IMG/VR virus record: IMGVR_UViG_3300034107_000364 | Strand: one strand, 5' to 3' | Length of the DNA: 64,000 nucleotides | From: a virus | Taxonomy: Duplodnaviria; Heunggongvirae; Uroviricota; Caudoviricetes | In this document: positions 56,505 to 62,991 of the stretch, one piece after another | Numbering within the stretch: the stretch's first letter is position 1 | How the letters are laid out: every line of letters begins with the position of its first letter | Notes under the pieces: model-generated | The model's input: only the letters and a program-made list of their open reading frames with translations | What the model was told of the DNA's origin: nothing | The model's database searches: none | Translations under genes and position numbers: made by a program

Positions 56505-56531
56505 AAACAAAACTAAACTTAGATATATAAT
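56505..56531 (+). promoter_or_regulatory. composite promoter AAAC-N17-TATAAT containing GATATATA
   Basis: AAAC 56505-56508, TATAAT 56526-56531, GATATATA 56522-56529. Confidence 0.6.
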
Positions 56532-56844: not shown

Positions 56845-57759
56845 ATGAGTGATTCATTTGACATTTTTAACTTAGGTGTAGAAGACGTAGAAACGCACCA
56901 AGTAACAACAAGTACTTCTTCAAACGAAGTGTACAAACCAACCGCAGACGATGGTAAAGACGGAACTTACAAAGCATTAGTGCGATTTGTTCCAAACCCT
57001 GAAAACCCTCGTAATTCCCTAATTCAAAAATATGTGCACTGGATGACAAATTCAAGTGGTGATGGTAAACTAGTTGATAGTCCATCTACTATTGGTGAAA
57101 AGTGTCCTATTGCAGATGTATTTTGGAAACTACGTAAATCAGATTCAGCTGTTGACCGTAAGGCATCAGAGAAATTGAAAAGACGTCAACAGTATTATGC
57201 TTTGATCAAGATCATTAAAGATCCACAAAACCCAGAATTAGAAGGACAATACAAAGTCTTCAAATTTGGTTACAAAATCAAAGAGAAAATCGACGCAGAA
57301 TTGAAACCAGACTTTGGTGAACCAACACAAGTATTCGACCTTTTCGAAGGTAAGAACTTTGAATTGATTATCACACGTCAAGGTGACTTCAATAACTACG
57401 ACAAATCTAAATTCTCAGCTAGTAAATCAGCTATCATTATGGGCGATGCACCAGCAGAGCGTAATAAAGAGACGATGACTACTATCAAAGCAGAATTAGA
57501 CACAGCTCCTTCATTAAAAAGTTACGATTATCAAGCATGGGACGAAGAAACTCGATCATTTGTAAATGATGTATTGAGAATGTATTTAAACCCAGGTGAT
57601 TCAATCGGTGAGATGACTTCAAGTGCTCCTAAGAAAGCTACTAAAAGTACAAGCTCTGTAGCTGAAATGGAAGCTCCAGCGAAAGCAAAAACAGAATCAA
57701 CATCAAATGTATCAAATGACGATGACTTAGATTCTTTTTTGAATGACCTCGACATCTAA
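56845..57759 (+). CDS. single-stranded DNA-binding protein (T4 gp32-like)
   Basis: ALVRFVP, SPSTIGEKCPI, IIKDPQNPELEG..VFKFG.KI, FDLFEGKNF, NYDKSKF, acidic tail DDDLDSFLNDL. Confidence 0.92.
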   Translation: MSDSFDIFNLGVEDVETHQVTTSTSSNEVYKPTADDGKDGTYKALVRFVPNPENPRNSLIQKYVHWMTNSSGDGKLVDSPSTIGEKCPIADVFWKLRKSDSAVDRKASEKLKRRQQYYALIKIIKDPQNPELEGQYKVFKFGYKIKEKIDAELKPDFGEPTQVFDLFEGKNFELIITRQGDFNNYDKSKFSASKSAIIMGDAPAERNKETMTTIKAELDTAPSLKSYDYQAWDEETRSFVNDVLRMYLNPGDSIGEMTSSAPKKATKSTSSVAEMEAPAKAKTESTSNVSNDDDLDSFLNDLDI

Positions 57760-58819
57760 CATAAACCTATCTGAAGAGTTAAAGGATAAAATAAGATATT
57801 CACTTAAACAAGTAGTATCTCAAAAACATCCTGAACCTAATAAGAAACTACTTAAAGACATGCATGGGCGAATAACCCTTGCATGTCCTTATTGTGGTGA
57901 TTCTCATACTGATGATACCAAAAAAAGAGGTAACATTTTCTGGGATACACTACAATATCACTGTTATAATTGTAGCCATCATACTAATGTTTATACTTTT
58001 CTAAAAGATCACGAAGTAAAGATGGATAATTCAGATGACTCGTTCGCAGTTATCGATTATATTCAACAAAACAAAATACAAGTTAATCCTGAATCGGTTC
58101 TAAAACACCAAGCTTTAGAAACTGTTCATAATCTTGCGATTGAGGTTGATGAATTTAAAAAACATTTTAGGGCAAAACCAATAGTTCCAGGTGACTGGAT
58201 TTGGTTTCAATTAAAAGCAAGACTTCTACATAATAGAGTAGATGATTTTTTATATTCAGAGAAAGAACATCGTTTGTGGATTCTAAACTTTAGTACAGAT
58301 GGTAAAATTATAGGAGCTCAGACTCGTAGAATGAAAGGATATGGTCAAAGATACTTAACGTATGATCTACCTAAACTATATGAGGAAATGGGTAAACCGT
58401 TAGAAATGACCAATGAAGAGTTAAATGCACTTACAAAAATATCAACTTTGTTTGGTATTATGCAATTAAATTTTCAAAGAACAATCACATTATTTGAAGG
58501 ACCATTAGATGCAAAGTTTATGAATAATTCATTAGCTCTTGCAACTGCAGGTAGATCAACAGAAGATTTCGATGAGATACCAACTGTTAGATATATGTTC
58601 GATAATGATGCAACAGGTAAAAAGAAAATGGCTGAAAAACTTAAAAGAGGCAGATCCGTATTTATGTGGTCTAAATTTCTTAAGGAAAATAAGCTGGATA
58701 CATATAATATTAAAGATCTAAATGACTTAATATTGAAATGTTTTGAGCTTAAAATCGATGCTCATAAAAAGATCGATCAATATTTTACATCAAGTCAATT
58801 AGATTTATGGTACGTATAG
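57743..58819 (+). CDS. DNA primase (T4 gp61-like)
   Basis: CPYCGDS..KRG..YHCYNC zinc finger; TOPRIM FEGPLDA and FDND; KDLND. Confidence 0.9.
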   Translation: MTSTSNINLSEELKDKIRYSLKQVVSQKHPEPNKKLLKDMHGRITLACPYCGDSHTDDTKKRGNIFWDTLQYHCYNCSHHTNVYTFLKDHEVKMDNSDDSFAVIDYIQQNKIQVNPESVLKHQALETVHNLAIEVDEFKKHFRAKPIVPGDWIWFQLKARLLHNRVDDFLYSEKEHRLWILNFSTDGKIIGAQTRRMKGYGQRYLTYDLPKLYEEMGKPLEMTNEELNALTKISTLFGIMQLNFQRTITLFEGPLDAKFMNNSLALATAGRSTEDFDEIPTVRYMFDNDATGKKKMAEKLKRGRSVFMWSKFLKENKLDTYNIKDLNDLILKCFELKIDAHKKIDQYFTSSQLDLWYV

Positions 58820-59028
58820 CAGATATTAGTAGTATGGTTGAAGATAATTTGGATGACTTTCAAAAAGACAGTGATAGATTTAAAGGTATGAAACTCTTAA
58901 TAGATTTCTCACCATTAGATCTTAGTGTCAATTCTCCAGATATTAAAATGCCAGAACCTAAATTTAAAAAGAAACAAGTTATTACAAAATTTATTAAGCC
59001 TAATCCTAACAAAAAATCATTATTTTAA
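58807..59028 (+). CDS. hypothetical protein
   Basis: 73 aa between primase and uvsY. Confidence 0.55.
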   Translation: MVRIADISSMVEDNLDDFQKDSDRFKGMKLLIDFSPLDLSVNSPDIKMPEPKFKKKQVITKFIKPNPNKKSLF

Positions 59029-59030
59029 AT

Positions 59031-59453
59031 ATGAGCAAAGAAGTAATATTAGCGCTTGATAAAAAATTAAGTAGCCAACGAATAGAATGGACTAACAACA
59101 TCAAAGAACTTGCACAAAGTCTTAGACGTTTAAATGAATTAGAAGGAACTATCGCAGAGGTACTTTCTTCAAGACAATCTTTGGTCGAACAAATATCATA
59201 TTTAAATATGAAGATTAAAGAACAAAGAAATAAAGTTAATGTCAGATATAGAGAAGCCTATATTAGATATTATGAATATGATTACAAGCTCGGTGAAAAG
59301 CAAAAAGAGAAGTTTATCGAAACTGATCTAGCCGATGAAAATATGATATTGTCTCACTTAGAAAATCAAGTTGAATTTTTTAGAGACTCGGTAAAAACTC
59401 TAGATAACATGGGATTTGCCATCCGTAATAGACTTGCATTAAAAGATCTATAA
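59031..59453 (+). CDS. uvsY: recombination mediator UvsY-like
   Basis: 140 aa helical; VEFFRDSVKTLDNMGFAIRN C-terminus; adjacent to uvsW. Confidence 0.7.
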   Translation: MSKEVILALDKKLSSQRIEWTNNIKELAQSLRRLNELEGTIAEVLSSRQSLVEQISYLNMKIKEQRNKVNVRYREAYIRYYEYDYKLGEKQKEKFIETDLADENMILSHLENQVEFFRDSVKTLDNMGFAIRNRLALKDL

Positions 59454-59478: not shown

Positions 59479-60987
59479 GTGGAGCTTAGTTTAACTGAAA
59501 ACAAACAGTTGCTTCGTATTGACGTAGCATCTGAATTAGAATTAGAACAACTCAACATATCTCTTAATAAGAGAATTGAGTCTTGGCGTTTCAATCCCTT
59601 GGTTAAAAAGGGACTATGGGATGGCTACGTTTCATATATAAAAGATGATAAGTGGATTCCTTCTGGACTGTGGAGGGAAGTCATGGGTATTTGTAAGGAC
59701 TACGGGTTTGAATTCAAACTCAATGGTATTACAGATATTTTCGATACGAATATTAACCAAGAAAAATTTAATGAATGGGCTTTAGCATTCTTTGATAAAT
59801 CTGAGATCACTCCCAGAGATTATCAAATAGAAGCTGCATTCAACATTTTAAAATTTAAAAGATGTTTAAGTGAATTAGCAACTTCGGCTGGTAAAACACT
59901 TATATCATTCTTAACCGTAGCATACCTATTAGAAAAACAAAAGGCACAAAAGATTCTCTTTATAGTACCCAATGTTTCTTTAGTGGTACAAGCAAGTGAG
60001 GATTTCCTAGATTATAATTATAGAAATGCTGTAGATATAAAAGTACAGCAAATTTATGCAGGTCAAAAAGTAAGACCAGGTAGAAATGTTATTATAGGAA
60101 CATATCAATCACTTGTTAAAAAAGACAAAGCATATTTTGAAGAGTTCGATGCAGTTATTGTAGATGAAACACATAAAGCAAAATCTGCATCTATTAAAAC
60201 CATATTACAAAAGTGTGCAAATGCTGATTACAAATATGGTTTATCGGGTACTATACCAAAGGAAGGCACTCTAGACAGATTAACTCTAATGGCATATACT
60301 GGTCCTCTAATAACTGAGATCAGTGCAAATTACTTGCAAAATGAAGGTCATATTGCAGGTTGTAAAGTAAAAATTATAAAAATGGACTACGCTCCGCAAT
60401 CTACCAAAGATGCGTTTAGAGAGATGTCACAAAACAGGTATGAAAGCAAAGATGTTTTTAAATTTGAACAGAATTATGTCATTAATTCGCCAGGTCGCCT
60501 TAACTTCATTACTAGCATTATTTCCAGAGTTCGCGGTAATAGTCTGGTCTTATTCCATCGTATCGAGCACGGCAAAAAGATATATGATAAATTACGCAGA
60601 GAAAGCGATAAAACCGTTTACTATGTTGATGGAGGAATTGACCAAGATATTCGAGAGGAACATAAAAAGAAAATGGAAGCCGGAGAAGAAGTCGTTATTG
60701 TTGCATCGTACGGTACATTTTCAACCGGTATCTCGATTAAGAAAATTCACAACATCTTCTTTACAGAATCTTTTAAATCGGAAGTCATAATTAGACAATC
60801 TATTGGTCGTGGTTTAAGGCAACACAGCTCAAAGGAATTCGTTAATATTATTGATTTTGTAGATGATCTTTCATCACCAGACTGGGATAATTATTTAATG
60901 CGACATGCCAAAGAGAGACAACGTATCTACAAAGAACAGAAGTTTAAATACGATATAAAAAATGTAGATTTTGAAGGAGATATATAA
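59479..60987 (+). CDS. uvsW: UvsW-like SF2 DNA helicase
   Basis: GTG start; WDG, PRDYQ, ATSAGKT, IVPNVSLV, DETH, GLSGT, SYGTFSTGISI, QSIGRGLR, DFVDD. Confidence 0.93.
   Translation: MELSLTENKQLLRIDVASELELEQLNISLNKRIESWRFNPLVKKGLWDGYVSYIKDDKWIPSGLWREVMGICKDYGFEFKLNGITDIFDTNINQEKFNEWALAFFDKSEITPRDYQIEAAFNILKFKRCLSELATSAGKTLISFLTVAYLLEKQKAQKILFIVPNVSLVVQASEDFLDYNYRNAVDIKVQQIYAGQKVRPGRNVIIGTYQSLVKKDKAYFEEFDAVIVDETHKAKSASIKTILQKCANADYKYGLSGTIPKEGTLDRLTLMAYTGPLITEISANYLQNEGHIAGCKVKIIKMDYAPQSTKDAFREMSQNRYESKDVFKFEQNYVINSPGRLNFITSIISRVRGNSLVLFHRIEHGKKIYDKLRRESDKTVYYVDGGIDQDIREEHKKKMEAGEEVVIVASYGTFSTGISIKKIHNIFFTESFKSEVIIRQSIGRGLRQHSSKEFVNIIDFVDDLSSPDWDNYLMRHAKERQRIYKEQKFKYDIKNVDFEGDI
60476..60790 (+). 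CDS. putative overprinted small membrane protein in the +1 frame of uvsW
   Basis: aattATG start, 104 codons, hydrophobic VALTSLLALFPEFAVIVWSYSIV; uvsW codon usage shifts over the same span. Confidence 0.45.
   Translation: MSLIRQVALTSLLALFPEFAVIVWSYSIVSSTAKRYMINYAEKAIKPFTMLMEELTKIFERNIKRKWKPEKKSLLLHRTVHFQPVSRLRKFTTSSLQNLLNRKS
60979..60986 (+). promoter_or_regulatory. putative late promoter GATATATA
   Basis: overlaps the uvsW stop, upstream of the CTS polyprotein. Confidence 0.6.
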
Positions 60988-61023: not shown

Positions 61024-62991
61024 ATGCAAAAATTAAAATCATTTGATCAGTTTTCGACTGAGACAAAAATTTCTCAGACTAGACAAGTAGAAGAAGACAA
61101 GACTATCAAAAGACAAAATGAAGCCGAAACATTCAAAACATTATTAGCTGAATTTAATGTTACTTCTATTAAAGAGTTAACACAAGAGCAGAGAGTAACA
61201 TTTTTTACCAAACTAAGAGGTGCCGAAGTTAATGAATCAGTTTCATTAATCGAAGAAGGTACAAGAGGTCAAATTGGTAAAATTGATAAAAAAGGTAATA
61301 TCACTTCAGTGTATATGCAATATGATTCATATCCTGAAAACATTTTACCACATCTTAATAAAGGATTTAAAAACGGTAAAAACGTTGATGAGTTAATTAA
61401 AAAAGGTAGTTTTTCAGGTTTAGAAGCTTCTATTGATAAAATTAATTTTTACGGAAAACCAGGTCATATGACTGGATCAGCTGCTACAGAAGCAGATATT
61501 AAGAAATATCTTACAAAAACATCAAACGAAGAATCAGCAGAATATGTTTATCTATGGGATGAAAATGCTAAACAATGGATGATGGCTGATACTTACGCAA
61601 ATACTGGTTTAGTTCCAGCTTTTGAATCACTTTCAGTTTCAGTAAATGAAGCAATTCAAGTACAGTATAAAAGAGATGCTAAAAAAGTACTTACAGTTTA
61701 CAATAACTTATTTGGTAAAAAATTAACTGATTTTGGTGCAATGAACATTGACAGCAAATTAGGTTGTATTAAATACCTATTAGAAAATGCAATGACAGAT
61801 GCTAACTTTCATAAAGAAGGACCAGTTGCATCAGCCGCTATTAAAGGTAACATTGGAACTTTCCAAGTTAAAATGGCAGGATTAGGAAACTATTTTATTA
61901 AAATCGGAGCAACGACAGTTAAAAGAATTTTAGATCAATATGTAACTGATATTTCAGGAGCAGCTGGATGGTCTGGAGTTGGAATCGCTGAAGGTACTGC
62001 ACTATACTTAGAACAAATCGGACAAGAGGCTGCAGGTCAGTCTATGTTAAATGCATTCAATGGAATGTTTACCGAATCTTTCATTAATGAAGCTGAAAAG
62101 TTTAAATCAACGAAAGACTTTGAAGAATTCTGTGAAGAAATCGATGGTATGCCAGAGTCAAGAATTAAGAAAATAATGGGTAAAGATTATATCGATACAC
62201 CAGGTGGTTATAGAGATGAAGCTGAAGATTATGACAATGACATAACTGAATATATGATTTCTAATATGGGTCGTAAAGAATTTGAAAAGCTTCAAGATTG
62301 GTGGGAAAATAATGTAGCTGAGTCTGTAATGAATGAGGCTGAAATTAAATCAGATGAAGAATTTAGTGAATACGCAATGACTGTTTTGAAAAAAGCATTC
62401 GGTGCTGAGTTCGACGAGGCTAAAGCTAAAAAAGTTGCAGACGGTATTCTAGCAAAATCAAAAGGTGATTACGGTACAGCGGTTGGAATGTTAACAAGTT
62501 CTCTTGGAGAATCAGTTACTAACGAAGCTGCGTCATTCTTATTTTCTTTTGATTACAATACAGATGAAGACGATGTTGACTACATTCAGCGTATATTAAA
62601 AGAGGCTGGAGTTGATGCAGTTGCGCAACCAGGACTAGACTCTGAAGAAATGATAGTTAAAGCAAAGAATGCAATTGAATTACGTAAAGCTAAAAAAGCA
62701 ATCAAAGAAAATGGATTTGAAATCTATGAAGCGATCGATACTAAATATTGGGCAGATTATAACACTGACACTTCAGGACAAGGAAATAAAGAATTTGCAG
62801 AAAAATCTAAAGATTTCGAAGATACATTTTCATTAGCAGTTGCTGAGTGGAACGATGAAGCTGACGGTGCTGAAAATAGAATTATAGGTTCACAAGTTGA
62901 CAAAGTTAAAAAAATAGCTCAACAATTCTTCAAAAAAGAAGGTTACATTTCAGTTAACATTGCACAAGCAATGATAGCACAAGAAGCATAA
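61024..62991 (+). CDS. modular capsid-targeted protein / putative polyprotein
   Basis: MQKLKSFDQFSTE leader; modules separated by VNES, AFES..VNEA, FTES..INEA, VAES..MNEA, LGES..TNEA, IYEA. Confidence 0.7.
   Translation: MQKLKSFDQFSTETKISQTRQVEEDKTIKRQNEAETFKTLLAEFNVTSIKELTQEQRVTFFTKLRGAEVNESVSLIEEGTRGQIGKIDKKGNITSVYMQYDSYPENILPHLNKGFKNGKNVDELIKKGSFSGLEASIDKINFYGKPGHMTGSAATEADIKKYLTKTSNEESAEYVYLWDENAKQWMMADTYANTGLVPAFESLSVSVNEAIQVQYKRDAKKVLTVYNNLFGKKLTDFGAMNIDSKLGCIKYLLENAMTDANFHKEGPVASAAIKGNIGTFQVKMAGLGNYFIKIGATTVKRILDQYVTDISGAAGWSGVGIAEGTALYLEQIGQEAAGQSMLNAFNGMFTESFINEAEKFKSTKDFEEFCEEIDGMPESRIKKIMGKDYIDTPGGYRDEAEDYDNDITEYMISNMGRKEFEKLQDWWENNVAESVMNEAEIKSDEEFSEYAMTVLKKAFGAEFDEAKAKKVADGILAKSKGDYGTAVGMLTSSLGESVTNEAASFLFSFDYNTDEDDVDYIQRILKEAGVDAVAQPGLDSEEMIVKAKNAIELRKAKKAIKENGFEIYEAIDTKYWADYNTDTSGQGNKEFAEKSKDFEDTFSLAVAEWNDEADGAENRIIGSQVDKVKKIAQQFFKKEGYISVNIAQAMIAQEA

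Follow-up and report, generated by a model that had tools for sequence, protein, structure and literature searches.

A stop-free +1 frame within the helicase gene uvsW of T4-like phages probably encodes a small overprinted protein

We analysed a 64,000-nucleotide stretch of DNA (the window) from IMG/VR virus record IMGVR_UViG_3300034107_000364, part of a T4-like phage that belongs to a large group of uncultured aquatic relatives, in which the helicase gene uvsW contains a long open stretch in its +1 frame. Comparison with relatives shows that this +1 frame is under purifying selection, as are the residues that it encodes. A protein is very probably made from it, and we lean towards a membrane-associated accessory protein encoded in the +1 frame of uvsW. 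The features discussed below are collected in Table 1.

Results

Stops are kept out of the +1 frame in about half of the uvsW lineages

Relatives were collected by five viral-contig scans and one metagenome-contig scan, each contributing the best 80 of 256-551 relatives, together with one annotated record. From the 421 loci, nine were dropped (three with N, six truncated or frame-broken), and 413 full genes including that of the window were retained, which comprise 181 distinct sequences and 94 clusters at 93% nucleotide identity. Cluster counts differ by test stage; an earlier set held 76 clusters and the final set 94.

The number of +1 stops in the core of the overlap was bimodal. No stop was present in 51 of the 94 clusters (open), whereas the other 43 (closed) had one or two (5 clusters) or three to seven (38 clusters). 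For a non-circular sorting, the clusters were grouped by Pro-Glu in the +1 frame at 60524-60529, two columns that are unable to become stops. In the 76-cluster set, the 39 Pro-Glu clusters had 0 stops at 60427-60624 against 144 expected, whereas the 37 clusters without Pro-Glu had 146 against 163 expected. Upstream of the core both groups were near expectation (903 versus 956 and 863 versus 908 stops, respectively). Furthermore, the motif predicted the state of the frame out of sample: all 7 new Pro-Glu clusters of a first batch were open (0 stops versus 27.7 expected), as were all 10 of a second batch, in which the 7 motif-less clusters were all closed. Among distinct sequences, 108 of the 110 with Pro-Glu were open and 68 of the 71 without it were closed. 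When independent pairs on well-supported branches were compared, the motif predicted an open frame on both sides of it: 7.4:0 (median p = 0.016) upstream and 8.2:0 (median p = 0.008) downstream.

The way in which stops are avoided was specific. In 32 Pro-Glu clusters, NTA codons before a purine amounted to 7/280 in the region versus 780/1872 outside, whereas NTA codons before a pyrimidine amounted to 87/242 versus 342/832; motif-less lineages showed no drop in NTA in the region. Since NTA is lost only before purines, the frame, and not the base composition, is under constraint. The +1 frames of the primase gene (55 clusters) and of a 140-amino-acid (aa) gene upstream (76 clusters) never reached 100 codons, versus 42 of 93 clusters for uvsW. 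A gene in another frame of the overlap was rejected, as neither the +2 frame nor any of the three antisense frames was consistently open among the clusters. Reassignment of a stop codon in closed lineages was also rejected, as their stops mix TAA, TAG, and TGA. UvsW has no insertion in the overlap.

These results bear on the possibility that no protein is involved and that the codons are held in place by a DNA or RNA element or by recombination of a patch, the open frame being a by-product. TTTCCA, present twice (60521 and 60552) in most open lineages, is a candidate element, the strongest synonymous constraint is narrow (60484-60558), and the first base of an AGA codon is invariant though CGA would be silent in both frames. 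However, the avoidance of stops reaches from 45 nucleotides (nt) before the motif to 100 nt past it, involves several different codons, and is confined to sites at which the following base would create a stop; among the frames and neighbouring genes compared, only the +1 frame of uvsW behaves in this way. A consensus fold of 22 open sequences reached -1.1 kcal/mol with compensatory change in 0 of 8 pairs, and a conserved RNA structure in the overlap was rejected on these grounds. Unlike in a recent patch, open lineages vary in their UvsW residues and wobble bases here just as they do elsewhere; each lineage retains UvsW residues of its own and stays stop-free by different codons. We regard an explanation without a protein as scarcely credible.

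The sequence-only reading, which had proposed a gene overprinted inside uvsW, is strongly supported in this respect: the combination of +1 stops and normal synonymous divergence in homologs, which it named as grounds against itself, is not what 51 of the 94 clusters show. Conservation of the +1 open reading frame (ORF) across related uvsW genes held for these clusters, and closure of the other 43 had not been foreseen.

Table 1 Features of uvsW, its +1 frame, and their surroundings (positions in the window)
Feature	Position	Strand	Description
uvsW	59479..60987	+	Superfamily 2 helicase, 502 aa, GTG start; host gene, frame 0; basis: ORF, PHROG, Pfam, tblastn
+1 frame, stop to stop	60380..60790	+	136 codons
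Hidden ORF, likeliest start	60440..60790	+	116 aa in the window genome, net charge +16
Alternative in-frame starts	60452 (ATG), 60464 (TTG), 60476 (ATG)	+	Candidate substitutes for ATG 60440
Likely translation initiation region	60430..60465	+	G-poor at uvsW wobble positions, no Shine-Dalgarno
Conserved core	60440..60625	+	62 codons, stop-free in all open lineages
Two short hydrophobic stretches	60494..60565	+	Residues 19-28 and 33-42 from 60440, around Pro-Glu-Tyr break; predicted helix-break-helix
Pro-Glu-Tyr motif	60524..60532	+	Pro-Glu-Phe in the window genome; uvsW codons TCC, AGA, then GTA/ATA
Basic, variable tail	60626..60790	+	Length differs between lineages
Upstream neighbours	56845..59453	+	gp32-like ssb 56845-57759; primase 57743-58819; 73-aa ORF; 140-aa ORF 59031-59453
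GATATATA promoter-like motif	56522..56529	+	Nearest exact copy upstream of uvsW
GATATATA copies	7800, 11471, 17269, 26239, 27601, 34990, 41396, 48882, 55383, 56522, 60979	+	Exact matches

The open frame in the window genome

The stop-to-stop stretch is the longest same-strand alternative-frame run in the 47 genes of the window, the next +1 run being 85 codons, and from 1537 +1 stops in 20,157 codons about 0.03 runs of this length were expected by chance. Given the UvsW protein and the codon usage of the window, 5.6 +1 stops were expected at 60478-60690, with a probability of 0.0004 for none.

Several claims of the sequence-only reading concerned the window genome itself. The +1 ORF at 60410-60790 (126 aa) is present, as are the 104-aa length counted from ATG 60476 and the hydrophobic segment. 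NTA-purine pairs are avoided as described, with 0 at 60379-60787 versus 27 in the 295 codons upstream. The claimed shift in codon usage stood for the GC content of third codon positions, which was 36/102 (35%) in the overlap versus 83/383 (22%) in the rest of uvsW (Fisher p = 0.006), and for CGC (3 versus 0), GTC (4 versus 1), and TCG (4 versus 2), compared with the other 393 uvsW codons; it failed for ATC, ACC, AGC, CTG, and GGC, whose absolute counts were no higher in the overlap than in the rest of the gene. ATG 60476 is indeed preceded by AATT, but a context like that of real genes was not borne out: with a matrix built from 42 gene starts of the window, it scored -4.8, below the lowest real start (-2.0).

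Metatranscriptome contigs covered parts of the region in 4 of 4 sets, one of them spanning 60284-60872; such contigs carry no strand, start, or frame information.

Selection on the residues of the product

In 28 open clusters, synonymous variation in uvsW fell to 0.60-0.73 of expectation at 60484-60558, whereas it was 0.97-1.04 in 20 closed clusters. Reduced synonymous variation, suggested as a check from the window sequence, was thus observed in open lineages only. The divergence tests were all pairwise or on labels.

Numbered from 60440, the conserved residues of the product are K4, F/L24, L27, F/Y28, P29, E30, Y31, F38, and S39. In the central motif, 41 open clusters had Pro in 39, a residue outside the five likeliest by codon usage, Glu in 41 versus 28 expected, and Tyr in 36 versus 8.6 expected. 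The uvsW codon TCC found here makes up 6% of the Ser codons elsewhere in the gene, and where UvsW goes from Val to Ile, Glu30 is retained by a change from GAG to GAA. Furthermore, acidic residues are avoided at positions 19, 20, 33, 41, and 45, which carry Ala, Val, or Gly instead (Asp 1 versus 28 expected at 60497, Glu 0 versus 15 at 60536, and Glu 6 versus 28 at 60560). Positions 1-29 were free of Asp and Glu in 46 of 51 open clusters versus 9 of 42 closed ones. Amino-acid differences encoded in 60508-60559 were also more conservative than those of codon shuffles (BLOSUM -0.48 versus -1.03).

Start, end, and access to the hidden frame

At least one in-frame ATG was present in each of the 51 open clusters, at 60440 in 44, at 60452 in 29, and at 60476 in 27. 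Stops at 60425 in three motif lineages (L211, L232, and L240) indicate a start after that position, and 60389 and 60410 were rejected as general starts on this ground; the avoidance of a stop at 60479 indicates a start upstream of there. The start would thus fall within 60440-60476, with 60440 the likeliest. The start assumed from the window sequence, ATG 60476, was not supported as a general one in view of its lower frequency.

The likely initiation region has the lowest wobble G of any window along the whole gene in open clusters (observed/expected 0.37; 0.91 in closed clusters) and is the least folded relative to codon shuffles (+0.9 kcal/mol). Most lineages lack A at -3 of ATG 60440. The codon at 60448 is AAA in 51 of 51 open versus 30 of 43 closed clusters, a difference that was not significant on independent pairs. 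A study of Flavobacterium describes initiation there as dependent on upstream adenines (PMC6847099), and by analogy the G-poor, least folded region fits such an adenine-reliant, low-structure initiation.

The same AAA was considered as the site of a programmed +1 frameshift from uvsW, by which the helicase would be cut after its first RecA-like domain and given a new hydrophobic tail. The codon is followed by a G fixed in 51 of 51 open clusters, which might let a lysine tRNA slip from AAA onto AAG, but the next codon is a common Asp codon, and open lineages show free variation in the T/A-rich run at 60454-60465. Among the open clusters, only AAA-G is fixed, its flanks vary, and neither a conserved slippery sequence nor a conserved shift site accompanied by a slow codon or a stimulator was found. 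Folding at 60508-60585 is 1-2 kcal/mol stronger than in shuffles in Pro-Glu lineages, but with no conserved structure or covariation. The start codon is not invariant, as a frameshift would allow, but an in-frame ATG in every open cluster and the G-poor window fit initiation. A frameshift therefore appears very improbable.

At the other end, the stops of the 51 open clusters end at 60628 (5 clusters), 60652 (1), 60682 (1), 60694-60703 (18), and 60787-60790 (26). The earliest thus ends at 60628, and about 62 residues were taken as the working core. In the tail at 60691-60787, motif lineages had 36 +1 stops versus 77 expected, and the others 55 versus 73. Some lineages may favour the long form, which runs to 60787-60790 and is present in 26 of the 51 open clusters.

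At 60478, a rare GTG was observed in 8 of 37 motif-less clusters (1.6 expected), and TGA directly follows the +1 ATG in most; the GTG is either one shared loss allele or the result of selection to shut the frame.

Anatomy of the predicted product

The column profile of the product shows hydrophobic residues at 19-28 and 33-42 flanking Pro-Glu-Tyr-x, and Lys/Arg on both flanks. The best 19-residue hydropathy was 1.84 in the window product, with a median of 1.47. AlphaFold2 predicted helices at 2-27 and 29-79 with a break at the proline and no tertiary fold (predicted local distance difference test, pLDDT, 82; predicted template modelling score, pTM, 0.36). Since both models obtained consist of two or three long helices with low pTM (0.28 and 0.36), fold searches with them are uninformative.

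The hydrophobic segment noted from the window sequence is plausible as a membrane feature; a clean transmembrane span does not appear to be conserved, as a hydropathy of at least 1.6 was reached by 12 of 41 products and the segment is broken by Pro-Glu-Tyr. According to the positive-inside rule, basic ends stay in the cytoplasm. The predicted anatomy fits a membrane hairpin with both ends inside better than a single holin-type span.

The low count of strongly hydrophobic products would also suit a real but soluble protein, a helical peptide whose short Leu-Phe-Pro-Glu-Tyr motif would bind a replication protein of the phage (UvsW itself or the clamp) or an enzyme of the host. Conservation focused on P29, E30, Y31, F38, and S39, the location within a replication block, and a helix at 11-27 that is more amphipathic in open than in closed lineages (0.92 versus 0.67) agree with this. 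However, the five positions at which acidic residues are avoided flank the motif on either side and are spread over 26 residues, and residues 19-45 carry a single charge in 29 of 51 products, both of which fit a stretch buried in lipid; moreover, the frame is lost in sister lineages whose UvsW is nearly identical. We consider a soluble peptide unlikely.

Homology searches and the lysis question

Members of the family gave only scattered weak matches in PHROGs (33 members) and Pfam (41 members), none common to more than 3 members, with no named family and no match to the Imm family. ESM Atlas gave no usable match, the best match among PDB sequences had E 0.56, and Foldseek against BFVD returned 0 matches. 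A protein search returned two matches among 1.84 billion representatives, both fragment calls of this overlap; one of them, P0002, represents the same overlap on a frameshifted assembly, because it runs from the +1 product into UvsW. A separate protein search gave a single match. In all 25 of the partial genomes searched, one match was obtained per record, with no stand-alone copy of the hidden gene. No lipobox cysteine was present in any of the 51 products. A search by titles and abstract openings, with most subscription journals outside its coverage, found no paper on a gene overprinted in uvsW.

Among 116 variable gene families in 22 partial genomes (11 open including the window, 11 closed), none co-occurred significantly with the open frame after correction (best p = 0.007). 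The best of these 116 tests concerned a 102-aa family (L526:8584-8913 in G019, about 10 kb downstream of uvsW), which is present in 4 open and 0 closed genomes and absent from 1 open and 8 closed ones, and is not significant after correction.

A holin or antiholin had been suggested for the product. As a lysis regulator, it would be expressed late with uvsW, and in-frame starts four codons apart would form a dual-start motif. The product is small and basic with one hydrophobic region, and Met-Lys-x-Lys-Met at 60440-60452 resembles dual-start holins. The two ATGs, however, occur together in just 23 of 51 open and 19 of 43 closed clusters. The promoter-like motif GATATATA lies upstream of the block, and T4 uvsW is transcribed from a late promoter (PMC3016281), so that timing does not argue against a lysis regulator. 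Against it stand the negative holin searches in PHROGs and Pfam, the want of a stand-alone copy in the 25 partial genomes, and the fact that no lysis gene adjoins the hidden ORF. An essential holin, in particular, is unlikely given at least 10 changes of state (see below) and a position among replication genes. Overall, a lysis regulator is a decidedly unlikely explanation.

Evolutionary history of the frame

On a tree built without the overlap, the state of the frame changes 15 times, at least 10 of them on well-supported branches. Lineages with UvsW identity as low as 70% have the frame open, and it is closed in a group of 7 clusters close to the root and in 6 of 6 distant uvsW genes (at most 56% identity). 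The members of one pair are in opposite states at 96% nucleotide identity, and sister lineages lose the frame while UvsW stays nearly identical. Because the state changes at least 10 times and distant uvsW genes are closed, the hidden frame is, as judged from these sequences, a de novo overprint younger than uvsW. The simplest reading would be a single overprinting origin followed by repeated loss, and repeated loss would make the gene dispensable and its benefit conditional.

Genomic setting of uvsW

The window is AT-rich (32% GC), and 47 of 47 called genes are on the + strand. UvsW matched PHROG 16 (E 4e-82) and, in Pfam, ResIII, DEAD, and Helicase_C, with a weak match to UvsW_N. Its identity to an annotated cyanophage uvsW was about 34% (tblastn), and the closest annotated phage collection record was an uncultured 462-kb phage (55% identity). 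Genomes of these phages are about 270-350 kb (CheckV-scaled). The gene order upstream of uvsW is identical in open and closed relatives.

A Shine-Dalgarno-like word was present at 0 of 42 gene starts in the window. In addition, one gene of a relative (G017) was closest to Bacteroidota in all 80 loci listed of 89 found (42-46% identity, pattern-limited search). For these two reasons the host is likely of Bacteroidota type. The G017 gene at L472:3205-3810, also found in G014 and G015, is a membrane-protein gene, presumably MarC-like, that is closest to Chitinophagales genes and served as the hint at the host.

The motif GATATATA occurs 11 times on the + strand of the window and 0 times on the - strand, and 10 of the 11 copies lie at most 65 nt before a gene start. 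It is likely the late promoter of this phage group, replacing TATAAATA of T4, and the copy at 56522 may drive the ssb-primase-uvsW block. An internal promoter for the hidden ORF was rejected, as no conserved GATATATA-like site was found within uvsW upstream of it. At the 3' end of uvsW (60934-60978), just before the GATATATA of the next gene, synonymous variation dips in both groups (0.83 and 0.86).

Several other observations were made around uvsW. In the primase gene, one antisense frame is open for at least 100 codons in 22 of 55 clusters; this frame is generally stop-poor (0.042 per codon) and probably ordinary. The 655-aa gene after uvsW (61024-62991) is highly variable in length among relatives. 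Only L147 has an extra 197-aa ORF between the 70-aa and 140-aa genes, about 1030-440 nt upstream of uvsW. The uvsW frame is broken, through either an assembly error or a real break, after about 120 codons in L097 and L168 (one contig) and after 74 codons in L420. G014 (L436:2941-5344, L437:1272-1859) carries 12 tRNA genes, one of which, with anticodon TAT, was called tRNA-Ile. In T4, the homing endonuclease gene segE is next to uvsW; a link of this kind was rejected here, as the 2.5 kb on either side of uvsW showed no homing endonuclease in 54 cluster representatives, and open lineages do not differ from closed ones in gene order.

Discussion

We propose the following explanation. In about half of the lineages, the +1 frame would be kept free of stops and acidic residues so that a protein of 62-116 residues is made, which we hold to be very probable. 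Given a protein, its synthesis would probably begin by internal initiation on the uvsW mRNA, independent of a Shine-Dalgarno sequence, at ATG 60440 or its substitutes at 60452, 60464, and 60476, in a Bacteroidota-type host. We further favour, with some reserve, a short hairpin in the inner membrane, in which two 10-residue stretches too short to cross would be separated by the Pro-Glu-Tyr break and the basic ends would stay cytoplasmic. More tentatively, the protein could be a dispensable, host-dependent factor in phage-phage or phage-host conflict at the envelope, e.g. in superinfection exclusion or counter-defence. We base such a role on the patchy retention of the frame, because a conditional benefit is what genes for exclusion and counter-defence usually offer. 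The predicted protein may have an exclusion-type role or another accessory one.

Several results weigh against a membrane-associated protein, or against a protein at all. A core stop was present in 2 of 110 distinct Pro-Glu sequences, and 2 open clusters lacked the motif. None of the candidate start codons is present throughout, and closed clusters have these ATGs almost as often as open ones do (for ATG 60440, 35 of 43 versus 44 of 51), so that the start ATGs themselves are no evidence. Between close pairs, the synonymous dip was modest (open, 0.171 in the core versus 0.190 outside; closed, 0.251 versus 0.235), and it was absent beyond 60560; because this effect over the wider core is small, the constraint is local. 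The mean hydropathy of the core was no higher than in codon shuffles (1.13 versus 1.02), and the basic charge is mostly forced by the helicase sequence. The membrane reading rests for this reason on the avoided acidic residues and the column pattern, and the acidic-residue positions used in the independent-pair test were chosen after inspection of the data. Position 35 is Pro in 11 of 41 products, and position 32 carries charged residues. Finally, no family, fold, or co-occurring gene hinted at a function in PHROGs, Pfam, ESM Atlas, PDB, BFVD, or gene content.

A wider reading, which we regard as doubtful, is that the hidden gene encodes a membrane counter-defence or exclusion factor, that helicase-silent mutations toggle it while both states persist as a long-lived polymorphism under changing hosts, and that unrelated de novo genes have arisen repeatedly in the uvsW of aquatic T4-like phages. 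If this were true, dozens of natural gain-or-loss replicates would be available for the birth and death of new proteins inside essential genes. Apart from that reading, the 51 open and 43 closed clusters, with their close sister pairs, provide matched controls with which the cost of dual coding could be measured, as could the decay rate of de novo genes. Gene callers miss the hidden gene, as the two fragment calls in the protein search illustrate, which implies that gene inventories of large phages miss conserved accessory genes. The context-specific loss of NTA codons before purines could serve as a simple screen for overprinted genes. Overprinting has been described mostly in small genomes, whereas here it affects a core gene, across its helicase motifs, in phages with genomes of about 300 kb.

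Gene E within D of phiX174 and L of MS2 are de novo overprinted viral accessory genes. The hidden gene differs from this class in its large genome (about 270-350 kb), in its helicase host gene, and in its patchy occurrence even among close relatives, the frame having changed state 10 times or more. It resembles de novo overprinted viral genes in using an alternative frame in an older core gene, in its restriction to a sub-clade, in its shifted codon usage, and in having no homolog, as such genes are described in a review (PMC8227390), according to which nearly every de novo frame that has been studied codes for an accessory protein. Apart from a fixed start, the features examined are those of de novo overprinted accessory genes, and on this evidence the hidden gene belongs to that class.

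The hidden gene is also similar to Rz1 within Rz of lambda, in that it is fully embedded, lies in the +1 frame, would encode a small product of envelope type, and is of a kind usually missed by annotation; one survey reports 196 two-component spanin systems in which the o-spanin was unidentified (PMC6139136). Unlike Rz1, it has no lipobox, its host gene is a helicase rather than an i-spanin, and no lysis cassette is nearby. An o-spanin of the Rz1 type was rejected because of the lipobox count (0/51), the helicase host gene, and the neighbouring ssb and primase genes.

The superinfection exclusion protein Imm and the antiholins RI and RIII of T4 are small, non-essential, and membrane-associated, as is predicted here. 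Unlike these proteins, whose genes stand alone, the hidden product matches no named PHROG or Pfam family, and its two 10-residue halves differ from the two full membrane spans of Imm. Taken together, these comparisons suggest that the hidden gene, which would found a new protein family with no detected relative, is a real feature of a known class, that of de novo overprinted accessory genes.

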